NCBI GenBank assembly: GCA_963827235.1
Contig: CAWHAE010000009.1
Span: 928,001 to 992,000 of the forward strand
Reading direction: 5' to 3'
Length of the DNA stretch: 64,000 nucleotides
Source: an uncultured bacterium
Lineage (GTDB): Bacteria > Chloroflexota > UBA5177 > JANWHV01
The notes beneath the pieces are model-generated. The model was given only the letters and a program-made list of their open reading frames with translations, ran no database searches and was not told the DNA's origin. Within the stretch, counting starts at the first letter, position 1; each line of letters begins with the position of its first letter. Of the stretch, positions 32,911-64,000 are shown in pieces. The translations under genes were made by a program, and so were the position numbers.

Positions 32911-34290
32911 CACGGTGTCCACCTGACACGTTCTGCAACTCCTCCGCCAGAGCTGAGACTTCGGCGACCGCTTCGGCCAGCTGCTCGAGGCCCCGAGTCT
33001 GCTCGGCGGCCGAGCTCGCGGCTTCCTCCGAGGCGGCGCCGGTTTCCTCTGCCATGCGCGCGATTTGTTCCACGCCCTTGGCCGCCTGAGTCATGGCAAT
33101 CAGCGCTTCCTGATTGGTCGCCACTATGGATGCGATGAAGGCGGCGAGCGACTCGAAGTCCGCTTCGATCTGAGTCAGGCTGGTCGTCGACTTGTGAGCA
33201 TTCTCCACATCCTGCTGAGCCTTGACTGTAGCCTGTTCGATATCGACGGTGACACGAGCAACCTGCTGCTGTATGCGCTTGACGAGGTCCTTGATCTTCT
33301 CGGCGTTTTCAGCCGAGTCCTTGGCCAGGCTGCGCACGTCGGCGGCGACGACGGCGAAGCCGCGACCGTACTCACCCGCTCGCGCCGACTCGATGCTTCC
33401 GATCACGGCCAGGAGGTTGGTCTGAATGGTGACGTTGACGATGGCGTCCACGATCTTGTCTATCCGCCCGGTAGACGCCACGAGCTGCTGGAGATTCTGG
33501 GCCGATGCCTGATCGGCCGCGGCCGTCCTCTGGATACCTTCGATAAGCGCGCCTACGTTGACGTTGTTCTGCTTCAGGAGCTGCTGCACGGCAGCGACAC
33601 GCTGTTGAGACTTCTCTGCCAGCTCCTTGGCCAGGAGGGAACCCTTCTGGATCTGCTCGACGGCACTGGCCGACTGCTCGGTGGCCGCGGCCTGCTCGGA
33701 GGCGCCGGCGGCGATGGATTGGATGCTGGCGGTCGTCTCCTTGGCGGTTCTGCTGGCTTCCTCGACGGCGGCGGACAGCTCCTTTGCAGAAGCCGCGAGT
33801 TCCTCGGAGGACTTATCTGCCGATGCGGCGAACTCGAGCGCTTCCGTCATATCGGCGAGCTCGGCCGCAGATGCGCTCATGTCGGCAAGTGCGCGCCCCT
33901 GCTCGTCGACCGCCTGCACGCATTCCTCGACCGACGCCGCTTGATCCTGCGCGCCCTTGGCGATCTCTTCGGTGGCCTTCCTGAACTGGAGCAGGATAGC
34001 GGCTACCTCGACGGCCTGGTCGTTACGCGACCTGGCTCCTTGACGGCCGATCCGGCTTCTTCCACCCCGGCGGCGAGCTCCTGGGTGGTGGCTGCCAGTC
34101 GACCGGCAATCTGCTGCTGCCTGGCGGCGGCGCGGGCGCGCTGCTTATTCTGGCTCTGCAGATCGGCGCGCAGACGCGATCCCTGCCCGGTGCGTGTGGC
34201 GCCGGAAACCTCGTGGGCACCGCTATCCGTAGCTCGTCCATTGCTGACGGGTCGCGCTGGTGGCGTGGGAAGGTCGGCGAGTCTCGGCAT
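32888..34290 (-). pseudogene. Soluble methyl-accepting chemotaxis protein with out-of-frame break near 34030-34040
   Basis: N-terminal [31 protein letters not shown] in one frame; the rest, with [27 protein letters not shown], in another; no TM helix. Confidence 0.75.
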
Positions 34291-34816
34291 GGTCATCCTC
34301 CTGGTGACTCTGGGCGTTGTCGTCCGTTACAACGCTGCTAGGCGCGTGCCTGAAGCGTGGCACCGGCTGGTATCGACTGACTCGGGCTGCCCAAGTACAA
34401 TTATCGGCAGTGGAGAGGGAAAGATTATAGCCCGATCTGGCCATTACTGAAGCGTGATAGTGCCGGTTAGACCGGAAACAATGATAGTGGCTATGTGGCT
34501 GGCGGGCGATAGAGCAAGGCCGACGAAATCACCGGAGGCGAGCATGTGCCCCACGGTTGACGGCTATGGGACGATTCTATTGAGAAACGTCTCGAGGCGT
34601 ATCGCGGCTACGGCCGGTCGTAGGCTGCCGGGGCAGGAAGTGGACCGCGGAAGGTGCAACGATGGAGAGGCGGGCGAGGTCTCGGATCACTGATTGCGAG
34701 CACGTCTGGCCGGCTAGCGGAGGCACGGCGTAGTCTCGCGGTGAAGTATACTTCTCGAAAACCGGCGCATTGCCCGGCGAGGCGTTGAGACTGCTATCAA
34801 GCGGGTTGGAGGAGTC

Positions 34817-35566
34817 ATGGCTACTCGAATGGCGCGCTACGACGTACGTAACGACGGTGCTGGACCATACGCGACGTTCTACTGCGATAGCTGTTCACGC
34901 GAGTACCGCAGTCAGCCGAACATGCAGGCGACGATCACCAAGGAAGTCGGACGCGACGTCCTGGGTGGATTCCTGCGCCGGAACATCCCGATTCTCGGCA
35001 GCGCGGTGGCTCGCGGTGTCGATGATACGGATCCCCGTTACTCGCGCACCCTCAACCCGCAAGAGCTCGAGAACGCCTGGAATCAGGTGAAAGACGTGTT
35101 TCACGAGTGCCCGACCTGCCACCAGCTGGTGTGCAATTCGGACTGGGACTCGCAGGTAGGCACGTGCTCTCTGGACAGTCCGCGCCGGGCGGAGATCGCA
35201 CAGGCGCAAACGGAGCAGGCGGCGGGCATGGTGAAGGGCCTGGCCAGCGTGTTCGGGATCGGCGACGCGGTGAAGAACGCGGCCCAGGCGGCGAAACGAG
35301 CGTCCACGACGGCGGCACGCTGCCCGAACGACGGTACACTGGCCAAGCCGGGCACGAAGTTCTGCCCTGAGTGCGGCGCGGCCATGATCCAGCCGGCCGC
35401 GCAGGCCTGTCCCAAGTGCGGGGCGGAGACGGGCGGCGCGAAGTTCTGTCCCGAGTGCGGCACGAAAATCGAGGCTGCCCAGCCGGAGACCACTCTTTGC
35501 CCGCAGTGCGGCAAAGAGACGGGCGGCGCGAAGTTCTGTCCCGAGTGCGGCACGAAGATGAGTTAG
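34817..35566 (+). CDS. Multi zinc-ribbon domain protein
   Basis: GGAGGAG RBS; many CxxC motifs, KFCPECG three times; 41-bp exact DNA repeat 35426-35466 / 35516-35556. Confidence 0.85.
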   Translation: MATRMARYDVRNDGAGPYATFYCDSCSREYRSQPNMQATITKEVGRDVLGGFLRRNIPILGSAVARGVDDTDPRYSRTLNPQELENAWNQVKDVFHECPTCHQLVCNSDWDSQVGTCSLDSPRRAEIAQAQTEQAAGMVKGLASVFGIGDAVKNAAQAAKRASTTAARCPNDGTLAKPGTKFCPECGAAMIQPAAQACPKCGAETGGAKFCPECGTKIEAAQPETTLCPQCGKETGGAKFCPECGTKMS

Positions 35567-35584
35567 GTCTTCACCCGGGAGGAG

Positions 35585-36896
35585 CTACGAAGCGTTCGGC
35601 CCGTCGCGAGACAGCCGCTTCTCGAGCCCGTCCAGGAAGATCCGTATGCCCACGTCGAATCGGCGGTCTCCGTCCGGGAAAGCCAGGAGCGGTGCTACCG
35701 CGGCCAGGTGTGGATAGGCGGCGGGCTGGGCCGCGAACTGCTGCTGGACCTCCTGCTGCACGTCGTGCGCGGGCTGGGCGGACGTGCCCTGGTTGGACGG
35801 ATCGGCGACGGCAACCGTGAGAATCGGTGCTGCCGCCGTCGATGCGCAGGTCGTAGAGGTCGGCGGCGATAGCGGCATGCGGGCTCTCCCAGCGCGCCTC
35901 GCCGACGGAGCCGAGCAGCAGTGAATCCAGCGAGAGCTGCCTGCTGCCGCCGCGGATATGCACACGCATGGCTGTGCCGTATGGGCGCTCGAGCCGCAGC
36001 CGCCTGGCGCCGCCGTCGATACTGATAGGCACGACGCCGGAGGGCGCGGGCAAGCGGACCACGACGTCGCTGACACCACCCGCGATGTGCAGAGAGGGCA
36101 CGTGCCCAAGCAGGAAGTCGGCGGAGAGCTGGACGGCGCCGCCTTCGACGTCGACTTCCCAGGGAACGGCGGCATTGAGGGTCACCGTGGTGGAGTCATG
36201 GCGACCGTGCCGCTGCTTGATGCTCAGCACGCCGCCGCGCAGCTCGACGTCCGGCGACTTGCCGTCGCCCGCGAGGTGATAGAGGTCGCTCATGCCCGCT
36301 CCGAGGCGCAACAGCAGGTGAGAGGCACCCTGTCGCACGACGAGATGCCCGCGAGATAGTGAGCCGAGCGGCACGCCGGCAGCCGGCTCCCGCGGCCACG
36401 AGGCGGGTAGTGAGGCGCTGGCGATCATGGCCTCGTCGAGCACATAGCCGACGACATACGTGTTGAACAGATAACCCGCATCCGCGACATCCTGAAGCGG
36501 CAGGCCGCTTCGATGCAAGAGCCCGAACACGGCATCGATGATGCGGAGCCGCTGCGCGCCGAGCGGCGGGCTTGCGGCCAAAATGCGAGCGCCATCGCGA
36601 TGCTGGAGCATCACGCGGCGAAAGTCGCGGGCAGCCTGCTCGAGCGCCTGGCGCCAGGGTGCTTGCGTAGACGGCATCGGCATCTCGCCGCTGATCGCAT
36701 CGCCGAGCATGACCAGCAAGTCGCTCTTGTCGCGCACGTGCCAGTAGAGAGATGCGGCCGTGACGCCGAGGCGGTCCGCCAAGCGGCGCATGGTGAGGTC
36801 GTCCAGGCCAACCTCGTCGAGCAGCCGCAGGGCGGCACGCGTCACCTGCTCTCGATCGAGGGCCGGCCGTGCGCGCGGCGGCGGTATCGCGGTCAT
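35585..36896 (-). CDS. TetR-family regulator with a beta-rich insertion domain (frameshift near 35820)
   Basis: HTH LTMRRLADRLGVTAASLYWHV; TetR_C helices; final helices YPHLAAVAPLL..DRRFDVGIRIFLDGL in ORF 35585-36175. Confidence 0.8.
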
Positions 36897-36921
36897 CGGG
36901 TCACATCCTCTCGCTCTGCTA

Positions 36922-37019
36922 TTGACAGTTTAACGCGGTTCGTCGTATGGTGTCGAGTGTGAACTAACAATGTTAATCTAGATGTGAGGATACGCCAGAG
37001 TGCAGATGAACTGTGTTAG
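36922..37019. promoter_or_regulatory. Divergent promoter region with three AAC-N3-GTT operator-like boxes
   Basis: TTGACA (36922) - 18 bp - TATGGT; boxes TTAACGCGGTTCG (36930), CTAACAATGTTAA (36964), TGAACTGTGTTAG (37007). Confidence 0.6.
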
Positions 37020-37095
37020 CCCGAGATCGAGCGCGGGCGTGCACCGTTACCCGATCGCCGTTCGTCCAGCCGCGATAGCCTAAGGAGCCGACACG

Positions 37096-38751
37096 ATGGC
37101 CAAAGCAAGCCGGCGCGCGAGCGCCAATCCCTGGGCGGTCCTGGGTATTCTGTGCCTGGGTTTGTTCATGTCTCTGCTCGATCTGACGATCGTCAACGTC
37201 GCCATGCCCAGCATCATCGATTCACTGCACGCCTCGCTCGACCAGATGCTGTGGGTGTTGAACGGGTACAGTCTCGTCTATGCGGTGCTGCTGATCACGG
37301 CCGGCCGGCTCGGCGACATCCATGGACCGCGGAACCTGTATGCCATGGGCACGGGACTCTTCACCGTCGCCTCGGCCTGCAGCGGGTTGGCGCAGACGCC
37401 CGCCGAGCTGATCGCTGCACGCGCGGCCCAGGGACTGGGTGCCGCGCTGATGGGGCCGCAGAGTCTCTCGATCATCGCCAGCCTGTTCCCGCCGGAGAAG
37501 CGCGGCGTGGCGTTCGGGCTGACCGGGGCCATGGGTGGGCTGGCAACGGTGGCCGGACCGACGCTCGGCGGCATCGTCACCACGCACCTGGGCTGGCGGT
37601 GGATCTTCTTCCTGAACCTACCGTTGGGCCTGGCGGTGATGGTGCTCACTATGACCGTGATGCCCGATCTGCGTCCGGGGCGGCGCCATCGGCTGGACCT
37701 GGCCGGCGTGGCGCTGGTCAGCGCCGGGCTGCTGGGAATCGTATTCGGCCTGATCGAAGGCCAGCGCTACGACTGGGCGACCGTCGGCGCGGGGATCACC
37801 ATTCCCGAGATCCTCGCCGCGGGCGTGATGGTACTGGCCGTCTTTTTCTACACGCAGGCGCGCCGGCAGGATCGCGAGCCGCTCCTCCCCTTCGCGGTGT
37901 TCGGCAATCGCAACTACGCGGCAACGGTGCCCGTGGCGGCGGCGATGGGGTTTGCCATCCTGGGTATCTTCCTGCCCCTCACCATCTACCTGCAGTCGGT
38001 GCTCAACCTATCCGCGCAGGATGCTGGCCTGACGATAGTGCCCATGTCGCTGGTGCCCCTGTTCATCGCCGGGTTCACAGGTACCTTGTCGGGCCGAGGC
38101 TACGGCAAGCAGATTCTCGGCAGCGGCCTCGTGCTCCTGGCGGCGGGCATGGCATATATCGTGTGGCACGCGCAGTCGGACTCGGCCCGCTGGAGCTTCC
38201 TACCCGGCCTGTTGGTAGGCGGGGTGGGCATGGGCTGCATCTGGGCACCGCTCTACAGCGTAGCCATGGAGAACGTGGATCCGCGCCTGGCCGGAGTGGC
38301 TTCCGGCCTGTTCAGCACGGTACAGGAGCTGGGCGGTGTGCTGGCCAGCGCGTCGGTCGGCGCCCTGCTGCAGAACAGGCTTTCGGCGGCGTTGCACGAC
38401 CAGGCCGTGCAATACGCAGGGCAGCTGCCCGCCGGCCTGCGCGCGCACTTCGTGGCCTCGTTCACGGGGGCGGCGCGCACCGGCCTGGAAGTGGGGCGCG
38501 GCCAGACGGGCGGCAGCGTACAGCTTCCGCCGGGAGTTCCCGCCAGGGTCGCCGGGCAGATCCAGTACCTGGCGTCGGCTGTATTCTCGCACGGCTTCGT
38601 GGATGCGATGCGACCGGCCATGGCGTTACCGATCCTGCTGCTGCTGCCGGCAGCGCTCTGTTGCCTGGCCGTGCGGCGCGTGGACCGCGGCGCTCCGGCT
38701 TCGCGACAAGCTGGGACGAGCCTGCCGCTGGGCGAAGGCGCCGCGCCATGA
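37096..38751 (+). CDS. DHA2 (EmrB/QacA) family MFS efflux transporter
   Basis: LDLTIVNVAMP, GRLGDIHG, AQGLGAA, GPTLGG, WRWIFFLNLP; AAGGAG RBS. Confidence 0.93.
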   Translation: MAKASRRASANPWAVLGILCLGLFMSLLDLTIVNVAMPSIIDSLHASLDQMLWVLNGYSLVYAVLLITAGRLGDIHGPRNLYAMGTGLFTVASACSGLAQTPAELIAARAAQGLGAALMGPQSLSIIASLFPPEKRGVAFGLTGAMGGLATVAGPTLGGIVTTHLGWRWIFFLNLPLGLAVMVLTMTVMPDLRPGRRHRLDLAGVALVSAGLLGIVFGLIEGQRYDWATVGAGITIPEILAAGVMVLAVFFYTQARRQDREPLLPFAVFGNRNYAATVPVAAAMGFAILGIFLPLTIYLQSVLNLSAQDAGLTIVPMSLVPLFIAGFTGTLSGRGYGKQILGSGLVLLAAGMAYIVWHAQSDSARWSFLPGLLVGGVGMGCIWAPLYSVAMENVDPRLAGVASGLFSTVQELGGVLASASVGALLQNRLSAALHDQAVQYAGQLPAGLRAHFVASFTGAARTGLEVGRGQTGGSVQLPPGVPARVAGQIQYLASAVFSHGFVDAMRPAMALPILLLLPAALCCLAVRRVDRGAPASRQAGTSLPLGEGAAP

Positions 38752-58476: not shown

Positions 58477-58898
58477 TCAGCAACCGTCGTCGGCAAGGTG
58501 GTGCAGCACCGCGAACCGGGTTGCCGCGGCGCACGACGAGACGCCGAGCTTGTTGTAGATGGCGTGCAGATGCTGCTCTACGGTGCGGGGACTGAGCACC
58601 AACCTTTCGGCCACCCCAGCGCTGGAAAGGCCCTCGGCCACGAGCGGCAACACTTCTACCTCGCGCATGCTCAGACCGGCTGGATAGGCCGAGGAGGTTG
58701 CATGCTGTCCGAGCCTGGCCCTGAGCCCGGCAAGCTGCGTCAGGGCAGATTGCGCACCAAGGGGCTCGAGGATGGCGGCCGACTGCTTCAGGTATGCAGC
58801 GATATCGTCCGTCTCTCGCCCGGCTATGCAGAGCTCAGCCAGCGCCAACAAGGTCAGCGCCTCCTCGTACGGGGTTGCGCAGGAGCGTGCCAGGCTAA
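58477..58898 (-). pseudogene. 3' part (LuxR HTH) of an IS630-interrupted regulator
   Basis: YPAGLSMREVEVL..GLS...VAERLVLSPRTVEQHL..IYNKLGV; joins the 63454+ part in frame (SHLEASLSLARSCATPYEEA) once the IS is removed. Confidence 0.85.
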
Positions 58899-58981
58899 GT
58901 GGTCGCTTTCACAATGAGTTGTAGGGTGTGTGGTATGGTGAGAGGCATCACGCTATCCGCGACCAACGAGACGGACCGAGC

Positions 58982-59950
58982 ATGCCTGGACCGCTTCCCC
59001 ACTACCAGCCCGTCTTCACCGACGAGCAGATTGCTGCGTGCTTGCGCCTTGTGCGCCAGCGCACGGCACCGCAAGCACAGGTGTACCGCGCCAAGTTGGC
59101 GCTGCTGCTGCACGCCCAGCCGGCCCTGGATAACCCGAGCGCCGGACGGCTGGTGGGCAAGCACGAGAACTGGGTGCGCTACTGGCGGCGCACCTGGGCC
59201 ATCGAGGGCTTTCGCCTGGCGGACAAGCCAGGCAGCGGGCGCAAGCCCCGGTTTTCCCCCTCTGGCCAGAGCCACGGTGACGGCGCTGGCCTGCGAGCTG
59301 CCGGCCCAGCGCGGTGAACCGCTCAGCCGCTACAGTATGGCCGAGATCGCCCGTCTGATTCGGGCGCACCCGGATGCGCCGCCGATGAGCCAGAGTACGA
59401 TCTGGCGCATTCTGGACCGCGATGCCCTCAAGCCCTGGCGCTACCGCAGTTGGATCTTCCCGCGCGACCCGCAGTTTGCGGCGAAGGCCGGGCGCGTCCT
59501 GGACCTGTACGCCGGCTTCTGGGAGGGCCAGCCGCTGGAGCCTGCAGACTGCATCCTCAGCGCAGACGAAAAGACGAGCATTCAGGCGCGTATCCGGCGT
59601 CATGCCAGTCTGCCGCCGTCGCCGCAGCAGGGCACGCAACCGGGCCGGCCCAGCTACGTCGAGCAGGAGTACCGGCGCGGTGGTGCTCTGGCCTACCTGG
59701 CGGCCTGGGACGTGCGGCGCGGGCACATCAGCGGGCGCTGCGAGGCCACCACCGGCAAAGCCCCCTTCGGCCGGCTGGTCGACCAGCTCATGCAGCAGGA
59801 ACCCTACCGCTCGGCGCCTCGCGTCTTCTGGGTCGTGGACAACGGCTCCAGCCATCGCGGTGCCCGGGCGCAGCGGGAACTGGCGGCCCGCTATCCCAAC
59901 CTGATCCTGGTCCATCTGCCTACCCACGCATCCTGGCTCAACCAAATCGA
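58982..59950 (+). pseudogene. IS630 transposase, N-terminal part (HTH orf, -1 shift at TTTTCCCCC, DDE domain), interrupted
   Basis: DKPGSGRKPRFSP; ALACELP; SADEKTSIQA; EYRRGG; VVDNGSSH; HLPTHASWLNQIE. Confidence 0.9.
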
Positions 59951-60525
59951 ACCAAGACCAAGCCATTGCAGGGACGCTGCCTAGTGGTGATAAGCTACTG
60001 GGCTATACCATAGTCCAATATCCCGGTCATCCCCTCGCTGGCCGCAGCGTCCCCGTGGTACGGCGCTACGGTCGCCGCGAGCGAGGGCAGTGGGTGATCG
60101 AACTGCCGGATGGCAGCCGGCAATACCTTCCCGCCTCCTGGTGTTCGCCGCTCGTTGCGGCAGAAGGAGCGCTTCCTGTGCCCGCATCGTCCCCGGATGA
60201 ATCGTCCGATGGTGGTGCCCGTCCGCTGCTGAGCGTGACCGCGCTGCGTGACCTGGCTGCCCTGGTGCGTCGCCTGCAGGAGGCGGCAGCCCCGCGTGGA
60301 GAGGAGCAGGGCGATGCAGGGGACGCAGGAGTGGCCGTGCCCGGAAGCGAACGAGCGGACGGGCGTGGTGAGCAGCGGGAGCGGGGTGGTGGCGTTGCCG
60401 AACTGGGAGAGCTTCCAGGAGGCGGACCGGCGCCAGCTGGTGCAGACCATCCTGCACGTGGCGCGTCGGCAGGTGGAGCAAGCGGGCCCGGCAGACCGAC
60501 TCCGCGGAAAGTGAGGCAGCCGTGA
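59951..60525 (+). CDS. DUF5372-like accessory protein; 5' end lies at the other end of the element
   Basis: Frame is open from the junction: ..TIVQYPGHPLAGRSVPVVRR..LPDGSRQYLPASW; no ATG/GTG/TTG before 60055, which is downstream of the HPL motif. Confidence 0.7.
60314..60514 (+). CDS. 66-aa hypothetical protein overlapping the preceding ORF in another frame
   Basis: GAGGAG RBS, ATG 60314, helical LPNWESFQEADRRQLVQTILHVARRQV; stops 7 bp before the recombinase start. Confidence 0.5.
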   Translation: MQGTQEWPCPEANERTGVVSSGSGVVALPNWESFQEADRRQLVQTILHVARRQVEQAGPADRLRGK

Positions 60526-62783
60526 GCGCGAACACAGCGGCAGGCGCGGTGTGGGACCAGGTGGCGGCAGGTACGGCCGATCCCAAAGTCCGGGCCCAGC
60601 ACCTGGGCCGCCAGGCGCTGATCTACGTGCGCCAATCCAGTCCCAACCAGGTACAACGCCACCCCGAAAGCGCGCGCCGGCAATATGGGTTGGTCGAGCG
60701 AGCCGCCCAGTTGGGCTGGCCACGCGATCAGATTGTGGTCATCGATGAGGACCAGGGCAAGAGCGGCGCGGGCAGCGCCGCCAGCCAGGGTCGTGATGGC
60801 TTTGCCCGGCTGGCCGCTGCCGTCAGCCTGGGTGAGGTCGGCTTAGTGCTGGCGCTGGAGGTGGCCCGGCTGGCGCGCAATTCGGCGGAGTGGTATCGCT
60901 TGCTCGAACTCGCCGGCTACAGCGGCACCCTGATCGCCGACGAGGCGACCGTCTACGATCCTCGGCTCTTCAATGACCGCCTGCTCTTGGGCCTGCGGGG
61001 AACGATCAGCGAGGTGGAACTGCATTGCATCCAGGAGCGCCTCCACGGCGCCCGCATGAGCAAGGCACAGCGCGGAGACTTACCGATCCGCCTGCCTGCT
61101 GGCTACCTGGCGGACCACGCCGGCCGCGTCGAACTCGATCCCGACCAGGAAGTGCAAGGGGCGATACGGACGATCTTCGCCCAATTTGAGGGGCTGGGCA
61201 CCGTCACCGCCGTGCTGCACTTCTTCACCGCGCACGGGCTGCTGGTGCCCCGGCGCCGCTGGCACGCCGAGAGCGGGTCGCAGATCGTGTGGATGCGGCC
61301 CAGCTACCAGGCATTGCACACGGTGCTCACCAATCCCGTCTATGCCGGGGCCTACGTCTACGGGCAGCGCGGACCGGCCGCGGATCTGGGGGCGCCAAAG
61401 CGGCGCCACCGGTATGCCGCGGAGGAAGCGGCGGTGCTGCTGCGCGACCACCACCCCGCGTATATTAGCTGGGAACGCTTTCTCGCCACGCGGGCAACCC
61501 TGCAGGACAATGCCAGCCAGTTCCCCGCGAGCAGAGGCGCACCGCGGCGCGGGCATGGTCTCTTGCAAGGCCTCGTGGTCTGCGGCCGGTGTGGCTGCCG
61601 CATGCGGCTGCAGTACGGCGACACCAGCACTGCGTACGTCTGCATCACGCGGCATCAACGCTACGGGGAGCCGCTCTGCCAGAGCCTGACCATGGACCAC
61701 GTCGACCGCGCCGTCAGCGAGGCGTTCCTAGCGGTCATCGCGCCGGCACAGGTCGCGGCGGCCCTGGCGCTGGCGGAAGACGTGGAGCGCGACCGGGCTG
61801 CTGCCCAGCGCCAATGGGAGTTGCGGCTGGAGCGGGCTCGCTACGAGGCCGAACGGGCCTTCCGGCAGTACGACCTCTGCGAGCCGGAGAACCGGCTGGT
61901 GGCGCGGGAGCTGGAAGGGCGCTGGAATGGCACGCTGCGCGAGGTGAGTGCGCTCGAGGCACAGTACCGGCAGGAGCAGGACCGCAGCCTGGCGCCGCTC
62001 ACCCCCGCAGAACAGACCGCGATCTGGCAGCTCGTGGGCGACATGCGTGCCCTCTGGGCGGCAACGCAGACGACCATGGAGGATCGCAAGCGCCTGCTGC
62101 GCTGTCTCATCCGCGAGGTGGTGCTTCTGCGCGACGACCGGCCCAGAGCGACGGGTGGCCTGACGACCATCCGCATTGGCTGGTGCAGCGGCGCCTGGAG
62201 CACCCTGCAGGTGCACCGGCCCGGCAGTGGCGATGCCGCCAACACGCCGGAGGCCGTCCTGAGCCGGATTCGGGGGCTGGCGCAGGACCATGCCGACGAT
62301 CAAGTCGCCCGGATCCTGAATGCGGAAGGTCTGCAAACGCGGCAAGGTCTGCCCTGGACCTACCTGCGGGTGCAGCAGGTCCGCCTGCGCCACCGCATCC
62401 CGACCGCCTGTCCGATCGTACCGCGCGACGGCGGCCCTCGCGGCGATGGTCTGGTGCCGGCGGGTACCGTCGCCGCCCAACTGGGCGTGGCGCGATCGGT
62501 GGTGGCGGAGTGGTGCCGGTGCGGCTTTCTGCGCGCCGAGCAGAAGGCGAGACTGGATCCCCGCTGGATCCAGCTCACCGCGGAGGACCGGGCGCGTCTG
62601 GACGGGACGCTGGCCGCGCAGGGCTACGGCCAGTGGCGGATCCGTGACGCCCAGCAGGTGCTCGGGCTGAACGCCGAGGCGCTGTACGCGCAGGTGCGAG
62701 CAGGCCAGCTGGTGGCCTATCGCGCGCACGTCGGGGCGCACTGGGAGTGGCGGGTCGGTCCGGCCACGCCGCCTGAACCGTAA
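60522..62783 (+). CDS. Large serine recombinase
   Basis: YVRQS catalytic Ser, DEDQGKSG, ARLARN, recombinase domain NPVYAG, zinc ribbon CGRCG..C..C, coiled coil, C-terminal HTH-like repeats. Confidence 0.94.
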   Translation: MSANTAAGAVWDQVAAGTADPKVRAQHLGRQALIYVRQSSPNQVQRHPESARRQYGLVERAAQLGWPRDQIVVIDEDQGKSGAGSAASQGRDGFARLAAAVSLGEVGLVLALEVARLARNSAEWYRLLELAGYSGTLIADEATVYDPRLFNDRLLLGLRGTISEVELHCIQERLHGARMSKAQRGDLPIRLPAGYLADHAGRVELDPDQEVQGAIRTIFAQFEGLGTVTAVLHFFTAHGLLVPRRRWHAESGSQIVWMRPSYQALHTVLTNPVYAGAYVYGQRGPAADLGAPKRRHRYAAEEAAVLLRDHHPAYISWERFLATRATLQDNASQFPASRGAPRRGHGLLQGLVVCGRCGCRMRLQYGDTSTAYVCITRHQRYGEPLCQSLTMDHVDRAVSEAFLAVIAPAQVAAALALAEDVERDRAAAQRQWELRLERARYEAERAFRQYDLCEPENRLVARELEGRWNGTLREVSALEAQYRQEQDRSLAPLTPAEQTAIWQLVGDMRALWAATQTTMEDRKRLLRCLIREVVLLRDDRPRATGGLTTIRIGWCSGAWSTLQVHRPGSGDAANTPEAVLSRIRGLAQDHADDQVARILNAEGLQTRQGLPWTYLRVQQVRLRHRIPTACPIVPRDGGPRGDGLVPAGTVAAQLGVARSVVAEWCRCGFLRAEQKARLDPRWIQLTAEDRARLDGTLAAQGYGQWRIRDAQQVLGLNAEALYAQVRAGQLVAYRAHVGAHWEWRVGPATPPEP

Positions 62784-62806
62784 CGTGACGCATCAGGGAG
62801 ACCGCC

Positions 62807-63130
62807 ATGCCCCAGCCACGCCGCTATCAGGACAACGCCGCCAAGCAACGCGCCTACCGCACGCGCCAGGAACAGGCCCGGCGCGAGGAGCAACAGGCCA
62901 AGGGACTGCCGCCCGCCCCGCCGTTGCCGACCCTGCCCAGCCGCGAACGCTGGCAGGCGCTCCTCACCCAGGCGCGGCTGGCCCTAGAAACCGCGCGCGA
63001 CGAAATGCACGCATATTACGACGACCGGTCCGACGCCTGGCAGCAGGGCGAGCGTGCGGCGACACTCGCCGAGGAGATCGAGCAGCTGGACGTGATCCTG
63101 GAGGAACTTGAGGCAGTGCTATTGCCTTAA
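62807..63130 (+). CDS. 107-aa hypothetical protein of the recombinase element
   Basis: GGGAG RBS; basic N-terminus RRYQDNAAKQRAYRTRQ, acidic helical C-terminus. Confidence 0.75.
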   Translation: MPQPRRYQDNAAKQRAYRTRQEQARREEQQAKGLPPAPPLPTLPSRERWQALLTQARLALETARDEMHAYYDDRSDAWQQGERAATLAEEIEQLDVILEELEAVLLP

Positions 63131-63211
63131 ACGCCCAACGCAGCGGCTGACGTGCCCGCTGATAGGCGGGCACGCCTCATCAAAGGAGATGCATTCGAAT
63201 GGGCTCACTGA

Positions 63212-63425
63212 GATCTACTTCTCTATCGTCCAACGCAAGGTGCTCAGCCCCAATGACTTCGCCGACCTGGCGGCGGTGGAGCAGCGCTTGCTCGCCTTCG
63301 AGGGCCTCTACAATCACACGGCGCAGCCCTTCGCCTGGAAGTTCACCCGGCCGGACCTCGAGCGGCGGCTGGCGCAACTGCGGCCAGTCCAGCAGCATGA
63401 ACCTGTCCTGGATCAGGCCGCCTAA
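63212..63425 (+). pseudogene. IS630 transposase, C-terminal part
   Basis: IYFSIVQRKVLSPNDF..FEGLYNHTAQPFAWKFTR. Confidence 0.88.
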
Positions 63426-63453
63426 CCCTACTGCTGTTTATGAAAAGGTCCAC

Positions 63454-64000
63454 TAAGCGACGCCTCGAGGTGGCTTCCGGCAGTTTCCAGCTGGTTCGCG
63501 GCGGTGTCGAGCCGGCCGAGGACGCGATGTGCCGCGAGCAGGGCCAGCGGCTGTCGTGGCGTCGCGGCACACTCCAGTGCATGCGCTGCCCGCTCGGCAG
63601 CGCTATCCGGCCTTGCGGCGGCGTGAAGGCAGGCTGCCCAACCGAGGTGCCTCTCCGCCCGGCCCAACACCGCCCCGCTCCAGGAAAGCCAGCGGTCGTG
63701 AGCTTCCAGCCAGGCGCGCGCGGCAGGGAGATTGCCCGACGCGATGGCCAGGCCTGCCGCGACCAGCCTGCAGGTCAGGTCCATTGGACAGCCAGGTATC
63801 GCCGGCCTGGGAGCCGAGCCCGGCAGGCAGCACCACCATGACCTCTGCCCACGCAAGGTCGATCTCGCCCGTGTACAGAGCGAGAGGTCCAAGCACTCGC
63901 GCGGCAAAGAGCCGCTAGTTGATGATCCCTTCCGCGGCCGCGGCCTCCAGCGCCGCCCTGCGCGCCTCCGACCACCGTCCGCTCAGGAACAATAGCGGAA
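63454..64000 (-). pseudogene. 5' part of the IS-interrupted LuxR-type regulator (continues beyond the window)
   Basis: AARAWLEAHDRWLSWSGAVLGRAE..RQPLALLAAHRVLGRL; reading frame looks disturbed toward the window edge. Confidence 0.75.

Follow-up and report, generated by a model that had tools for sequence, protein, structure and literature searches.

A serine-recombinase element in the catalytic glutamate codon of an IS630 transposase, and a clade of related recombinases found at the same codon in divergent IS630 genes

The described systems closest to the element reported here share some of its features and differ in others. The element is a 3,261-bp unit encoding a large serine recombinase (LSR), inserted in the transposase gene of an IS630-family insertion sequence (IS) within a 64,000-nucleotide window of an uncultured Chloroflexota bacterium (the window is the whole stretch of DNA analysed, positions 928,001 to 992,000 of contig CAWHAE010000009.1). 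One comparable unit occurs in Sinorhizobium fredii, and we take it to be the unit bearing the names y4bA-D and NGRIS-4. This NGR234 unit, located at 33989-37258 of pNGR234a (NC_000914), encodes an LSR 41% identical over 664 amino acids, likewise has a DUF5372 gene first, and lies inside a transposase gene just before the conserved RVE motif. The present element shares its arrangement of a DUF5372-like gene upstream of a related LSR, inserted in a gene of another mobile element. The NGR234 unit differs in having four genes (DUF5372, helix-turn-helix (HTH), small open reading frame and recombinase) instead of orfA, orfB, LSR and a variable passenger, and in lying backwards in a transposase of another family, its neighbour being annotated as ISNCY and not IS630. 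Neither papers on NGRIS-4, y4bA or DUF5372 nor a formal family definition were found in a search that covered little of the older literature on NGR234 repeats.

Serine integrative and mobilisable elements of streptococci and clostridia, found in the traG, maff2 and SNF2 genes of Tn5252-family integrative and conjugative elements, also disrupt an internal site of a mobile-element gene, and restoration upon excision has been proposed for them (PMC5704250). They carry replication or mobilisation genes and target conjugation genes. In the 3.3-kb element neither a relaxase nor a replication gene is recognised, no relaxase having been found among the open reading frames scanned with Pfam and NCBIfam, and its target is an active-site codon of transposases in widely differing hosts. 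Tn4451/Tn4453, with the recombinase TnpX, and the multi-targeting clade of Durrant et al. share with the element an LSR, a 2-bp GA core, a circular intermediate (predicted for the element) and several genomic copies (PMC10083194), but TnpX uses numerous sites instead of one codon and needs no excision factor. DUF4368, reported in 63% of the Durrant multi-targeting clade (PMC10083194), is absent from the Pfam matches of this LSR and of its 120 best homologues. IS630 does not appear in the accessible text and eight supplementary files of that study, in which transposase activity is given as not enriched among targets (6/1069 vs 2/908, false discovery rate 0.37; PMC10083194). The group II intron RmInt1, in ISRm2011-2 of the IS630-Tc1 family, also homes into an IS630-family transposase gene (PMC4238363), by RNA-based retrohoming and splicing, with a single IS and its relatives as the target, in contrast to LSR-mediated DNA recombination at a motif spread across subfamilies. 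RIT elements are likewise recombinase elements inside a transposase gene; they differ in their tyrosine chemistry, in their recombinases in trio, and in being described in the accessible text as single cases with no motif targeting shown (PMC3414803). No published description of LSR elements targeting transposase motifs was found in a search in which subscription journals were largely uncovered. Judged from sequence comparison, the present element very probably belongs to an IS630-specialist clade within a wider, apparently undescribed LSR family that parasitises the catalytic motifs of other mobile elements.

The left junction falls in WLNQIE, with the GA core at 59949-59950; at the right junction the IYFS frame resumes directly after a GA at 63210-63211. 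Deleting 3,261 bp and retaining one GA restores the transposase frame (EIYFS). Both junctions and the frame bear out the initial annotation, which had placed the insertion inside the Glu codon of WLNQIE and reconstructed an empty site reading WLNQIEIYFS. The attL site (59927..59972, + strand), recognised from the junction shared with a second copy on contig C12 and from the arm consensus, comprises a host arm, the GA core and an element arm. As expected of the 2-bp core of an LSR, GA gives back the reading frame at both genomic sites, and reversed insertions use a TC core. The interrupted motif was seen in 11 of 12 related IS630 loci examined, 10 of which continue gap-free into the corresponding helix of the C-terminus. 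In a profile built from 17 target transposases, the split Glu falls on the final residue of SPDLNPIE in PDB 5CR4 (Sleeping Beauty), and the catalytic spacings of 91 residues (D-D) and 35 residues (D-E) agree with the Sleeping Beauty residues D153, D244 and E279 (PMC4820933). On this alignment the split Glu codon encodes the third catalytic residue of the IS630 transposase, equivalent to Sleeping Beauty E279, which upholds the earlier identification of the residue within the conserved IS630 motif.

The position recurs among related recombinases. From 61 loci with at least 55% LSR identity, L092 (a duplicate of L001, the C12 copy) was dropped and 11 of the remaining 60 lacked a junction, leaving 49; the LSR homologues in this clade are 58-100% identical to this LSR, and those at 58-90% are common in metagenomes. 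The IS630 Glu codon accounts for 32 of 36 distinct upstream host arms; of the other four, L122 lies at the equivalent site of an rve-type transposase, and C12, L106 and L130 lie in other DNA. Insertion into several unrelated gene families, the trait of multi-targeting LSRs, is thus not what the arms display, although the divergent IS630 hosts would count as several clusters under the 50%-identity rule of Durrant et al. (PMC10083194). The initial annotation had named insertion of close homologues at unrelated sites as the outcome that would make this a one-off event. The tabulated flanks of those homologues gave the opposite result, with 31 of 34 distinct upstream arms outside this genome lying at the catalytic Glu codon of an IS630. 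The C12 copy had suggested that a multi-targeting LSR made a one-off insertion, a reading dropped on this tabulation.

Further comparisons point the same way. Among downstream arms, 24 of 26 distinct ones resemble the IS630 helix after Glu, as judged by eye against intact relatives. Pfam DDE_3 is matched by 28 of 36 scanned left flanks, all 28 ending at profile position 121-123; a local profile adds six loci outside its training (L097, L101, L103, L121, L123 and L143) and rejects C12 and L106. IS630 junctions occur in 22 of 24 LSR clusters formed at 90% identity, and the 33 IS630-labelled rows make up one side of a branch with a Shimodaira-Hasegawa support of 100 in a quick FastTree that took in 77 of 154 sequences, the unlabelled distant ones being left out. 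The host transposases are mutually only 11-71% identical (median 21%, 136 pairs), and the target is therefore a family-wide motif and not one multicopy IS. The proposal that a conserved multicopy IS sequence serves as attB stands in part: the IS630 motif is conserved, while the host IS is not multicopy here and the target is shared by divergent subfamilies. These data support targeting by the LSR clade of a motif common to divergent IS630 subfamilies, with probably high but not absolute specificity. An integrase so aimed would address a protein-constrained motif and not a single gene, entering the same codon in transposases about 21% alike.

Orientation follows the core. L128 and L135 are inserted backwards in the IS630 Glu codon with a TC core, as core-dictated orientation predicts; their sense-strand left calls, with 4 mismatches, had been dropped as false before the two were resolved as reversed insertions. 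L122, an IS630-clade member on a long branch, also has a TC core and a backward orientation; it occupies an IS630-like PWMSYIE motif of an rve-domain transposase and likely represents a host switch. Right junction calls at L133 and L147 were discarded as false. Beyond the clade, 123 more distant loci were compared, and an upstream IS630 that stops at its Glu was found in none. The readable ones occupy reverse-transcriptase genes of group II introns, IS21 and other targets; a pattern search found the right-end motif in a minority of 112 distant loci, with targets read by eye, and the targets of distant relatives are consequently mapped only in part.

Within this genome, candidate sites were scored with a weight matrix built from the arms of relatives, the genome's own sites being excluded. 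The window site scores 30.3 and exceeds all 1,019,683 intact GA sites of the genome, the best of which scores 24.9. The second copy, on C12, is 99.97% identical, with one base different and the same ends, and splits an SMC/LmuB-like ATPase gene at a GA core with the frame restored; since this nearly identical copy occupies an unrelated site, the element has moved recently and without IS630 DNA. The upstream arm at C12 ranks in the top 0.05%, and the site shares 19 of 44 bases with the window site (top 0.84%); by these comparisons it is a modest look-alike of the IS630 target. Other integrative elements are known to combine strict site choice with the occasional use of secondary sites (PMC5704250). 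In the region L001:7877-16191 (near 1.39 Mb of C12), the interrupted ATPase gene has an internal stop at L001:12083 and is accompanied by two unannotated genes and a type II-like methyltransferase; the neighbourhood resembles a worn defence locus.

A third site is marked by an assembly break. The ends of contigs C21 (its first base) and C5 (its last base, reversed) fall inside the Glu codon of a second, distinct IS630, with the G on C21 and the A on C5. Both halves of this IS630 are present at the contig ends, and its site has a score of 33.8, compared with 30.3 for the window site. In this assembly, which is 9% contaminated, the break likely reflects a third element copy or a mixture of filled and empty sites. 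Two intact IS630-like sites in the genome are empty and score 0.7 and 6.5. Near 376,930 of contig C18, a small deletion has removed the Glu codon and GA core from a decayed IS630 belonging to the C21/C5 subgroup; it could be an imprecise-excision scar or ordinary decay. Empty copies of the host IS had been proposed as a check; blastn found no second copy, empty or filled, elsewhere in the genome. One contig from eight read runs, bridging the empty site at 85% likeness, may derive from another IS630 and was left unused.

The element carries four genes on the + strand. The LSR (60522..62783, 753 amino acids) matches Pfam Resolvase, Recombinase and Zn_ribbon_recom above cut-off, showing the catalytic domain, the recombinase domain and the zinc ribbon with coiled coil of its class, and its YVRQS catalytic motif is invariant across 27 aligned homologues. 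Upstream, the DUF5372-like orfA body (59950..60525) has no conserved start at the left end, and its stop overlaps the LSR start, as in 41 of 42 loci. The missing beginning lies at the right end (63182..63211, + strand), where a ribosome-binding site (63182-63188) and an orfA start codon (63199-63201) precede the GA core. In all 24 loci having both ends, two of them this element, the start codon stands 11 nt ahead of the core in frame with the left-end body, and the frame across the circle junction is open for 191-202 codons, compared with 3-104 codons in other frames. The presence of a whole orfA only across joined ends in these loci implies, at the level of sequence, a circular form of the element. 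The circle junction of TnpX elements forms a promoter, in contrast to that of this element, which would complete a gene. Neither a sigma-70 promoter nor a terminator was found at the right end. The predicted fold of orfA is an SH3/KOW-like barrel with a helix (predicted local distance difference test (pLDDT) 68); a fold search returned generic SH3/KOW matches only (best Z 5.8, root-mean-square deviation 2.4, 51 residues aligned), which indicate no function. DUF5372 is matched below cut-off by orfA of two relatives (E 1.4e-4 in L115) and not by the window's own orfA. The last gene, orfC (62807..63130, 107 amino acids), is a variable passenger with no Pfam or NCBIfam match, missing or replaced in most relatives.

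Between orfA and the LSR, orfB (60314..60514, + strand, 66 amino acids) carries the motif LPxWESF..DR..LV and is a candidate recombination directionality (excision) factor. The motif is present in all 42 loci with a left junction, and the gene stays intact in the integrated state. Through this conserved motif orfB is predicted to bind LSR residues 401-420 and 497-529, with a score of 0.68 against 0.00 for the best of three controls; model runs gave a contact agreement of at least 62% and a partner pLDDT of at least 61. The mark used for such complexes is only roughly valid here, own alignments having been used; 116 of 157 solved complexes pass it, as do 2 of 215 mismatched pairs. The predicted interface is the base of the coiled coil and not its tip; known excision factors are predicted at this junction of zinc domain and coiled coil, not at the coil tip (bioRxiv 2024.06.11.598349; 2025.01.03.631226). 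The structural model accordingly makes orfB a candidate excision factor, predicted to bind where known excision factors are placed.

The anatomy, the precise 2-bp core, the recent movement and the clade-wide position at the Glu codon of divergent IS630 genes are observed directly. What they very probably describe is a compact integrative element whose LSR recognises the DNA coding for the IS630 catalytic-Glu motif and recombines at the GA core, and whose exit as a circle, aided by a small excision factor, is predicted. Likely zinc-domain binding motifs, taken from the arm consensus and a 5-bp shift test, are CCTG at 59932-59935 and its mirror CAGG at 59969-59972; the mirror (CCTG) of the element's left-arm motif fits the upstream host arm best when shifted 5 bp toward the core (5.2, next best -0.4), and an offset of zinc-domain motifs between attP and attB has been described for LSRs (PMC3783163). 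The zinc-ribbon domain would read the CCTG-like Ser/Pro-Trp codons that precede the Glu and stand 5 bp closer to the core than does the mirror motif of the element arm. orfB would switch the LSR to excision, with the transposase exactly restored; reactivation of the IS630 by precise excision fits the 2-bp core and the predicted excision factor. In the circle, the ribosome-binding site and start codon of the right end would join the left-end orfA body, and the circle would make orfA and, by coupling, since the orfA stop overlaps the LSR start, more recombinase for re-integration, the integrated form being without orfA. A protein-constrained motif in a dispensable selfish gene would offer a target that recurs across genomes, resists drift and is cheap for the cell, and look-alike sites would be used at lower frequency. 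Among the simplest mobile elements, it would offer a clear and testable instance of one parasite exploiting another, and it may account for some broken IS630 copies.

Several observations weigh against this interpretation. The only other assembled copy, on C12, lies in a non-IS gene, at a site only in the top 0.47% of GA sites with a downstream arm at background, and the left junctions of L106 and L130 are wholly unlike the motif. Most loci are short metagenome contigs that stitch together flanks of different copies (for example L118/L119 and L099/L103), so that whole target sites are rarely seen; with kin non-independent as well, the clade figures are counts of junctions and not of events. 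Insertions in dispensable IS genes survive selection better, which inflates the IS630 count. The weight matrix in part reflects protein conservation and not recombinase contacts, and the 5-bp shift is clear in one arm pair only, the other three being weak, absent or unclear. The orfB score may reflect likeness to solved complexes of LSRs with their factors, and the model is not proof of binding. No circle junction or excision product was found in eight read runs, which contain only relatives as contigs.

The alternative that survives best holds that the host maintains the element as a reversible means of silencing IS630 transposition, and that it is not a parasite for which IS genes are safe landing sites. 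The precise frame-restoring core and the candidate excision factor in every locus with a left junction would suit a switch, as would the finding that, of the IS630 sites in this genome, those with high scores are occupied or broken while intact ones score low; RmInt1, too, has been argued to curb the spread of its host IS (PMC4238363). Against host maintenance stands the scarcity expected of a mobile parasite: at close identity the element is found in 0 of 4 other genomes of the genus and is absent from 399 of 400 sampled genomes of the phylum, the one exception being 61% identical; the GTDB scan gave a single close relative (L006), at 61%. We therefore consider the switch unlikely.

Appreciably less credible is a relaxed, multi-targeting LSR like TnpX of Tn4451, with the dominance of IS630 arising from the purging of insertions in useful genes. 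The C12 copy and the 3 of 36 upstream arms outside transposases agree with it, and Tn4451 likewise uses a GA core at numerous sites (PMC5704250). Purging would be expected to leave a scatter over intergenic DNA, many IS families and many positions, whereas the arms concentrate in one codon of one family, with a 33rd at the equivalent site of an rve transposase, and the held-out window site outranks every intact GA site of the genome. Inheritance from a single ancestral IS630 insertion spread as a composite transposon, with no retargeting, is refuted as the main cause and is highly improbable as such, because the composites with differing outer flanks and one IS21 composite that suggest it are set against hosts far more divergent than their LSRs, near-identical elements in different IS630 subgroups, the flipped orientation of L128/L135 and a C12 copy that moved without any IS630 DNA.

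Composite movement may still act beside the targeted insertion favoured here. The initial annotation had supposed that the element could hitchhike with its host IS. IS-plus-element composites with differing outer flanks are seen in three pairs of metagenome contigs (L136/L138, L117/L139 and L128/L135), a pattern equally explained by repeated insertion into copies of one IS or by stitched assemblies; a comparison of private defects did not separate hitchhiking from repeated insertion, and this genome has no intact copy of the IS630 as a transposase source. Hitchhiking as a real secondary route is accordingly a tentative proposal, somewhat doubtful on the present comparisons. In genome G004, which belongs to the same genus, an IS21 with a related LSR element stands at two places (L174:6192-11278 and L175:6678-11764); the two are 99.9% identical, differ in their outer flanks and are accompanied by additional IS insertions. 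Another genome holds six near-identical 3.1-kb units (L023, L024, L030, L031, L033 and L038; LSR 37-38% identical), in each of which a small non-coding repeat, bearing terminal inverted repeats and palindromes resembling repetitive extragenic palindromes, encloses the LSR element; these units make a good test case for hitchhiking.

On a wider scale, the comparisons make it reasonably probable that the element represents an undescribed superfamily of minimal LSR elements parasitising catalytic-motif codons, with one clade per host (IS630 here; intron reverse transcriptases and IS21 in sister clades), a new type of excision factor in orfB and a gene completed by the circle. Such a superfamily, if real, would be a reversible off-switch for a whole transposase family, travelling with it, and a natural series of integrases re-aimed by evolution. 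As a resource, the clade comprises dozens of naturally occurring combinations of LSR, attP and attB whose target is degenerate yet defined, and has a candidate excision factor adjoining the LSR; natural GA/TC core variants flip the orientation, and sister clades with other targets would be useful for studying the re-aiming of specificity.

The host IS630 (58898..63453, + strand) encloses the element and is delimited by inverted repeats of 34 nt, 74% identical (58894-58927 and 63425-63458), by TA at 58896-58897 and 63454-63455, and by the restored frame. Its transposase matches transpos_IS630 of NCBIfam (E 2.5e-26), and the DDE_3 domain with its DDE set, the terminal inverted repeats and the TA duplication place it in IS630/Tc1. 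The N-terminal HTH frame (58928..59317, + strand) gives weak matches to Pfam HTH_23/HTH_32. We infer from the sequence that a programmed frameshift at TTTTCCCCC (59252-59260) likely connects this frame with the catalytic one; TTTTCCCC occurs at the matching position in 3 of 12 related IS630 loci. The catalytic domain (59268..59951, + strand) runs up to the third catalytic residue (Glu codon 59949-59951), with Pfam DDE_3 terminating at the junction and the 5CR4 alignment in support, and the orphaned C-terminal portion (63210..63425, + strand; 71 codons and a stop, counted from the Glu codon) matches the C-termini of intact relatives. The left half of the split transposase still ends in a Glu codon (GAA) and retains D, D and E, so that the damage consists in the loss of the 70 C-terminal residues, in place of which 10 element-encoded residues follow; this loss probably inactivates the transposase.

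The IS630 itself disrupts a LuxR-type regulator gene, whose 3' part lies at 58477..58895 on the - strand (Pfam GerE, E 8.9e-17) and whose 5' part extends from 63456 on. The regulator frame stays open once the IS630 is deleted in silico, giving an empty IS site, and the region 58477-64000 thereby shows nesting at three levels, with the LSR element within the IS630 and the IS630 within the regulator gene. The orfC slot of the element holds differing passengers across clade members, and orfC-related DNA without an LSR occurs at three other places in the genome (C17:213761-214026, C13:6319-6412 and C10:313678-313718). A reverse layout is seen at L185/L091 (G019:C76), where a truncated, decayed LSR gene belonging to the wider family lies immediately beside an IS630 whose Glu motif is intact.

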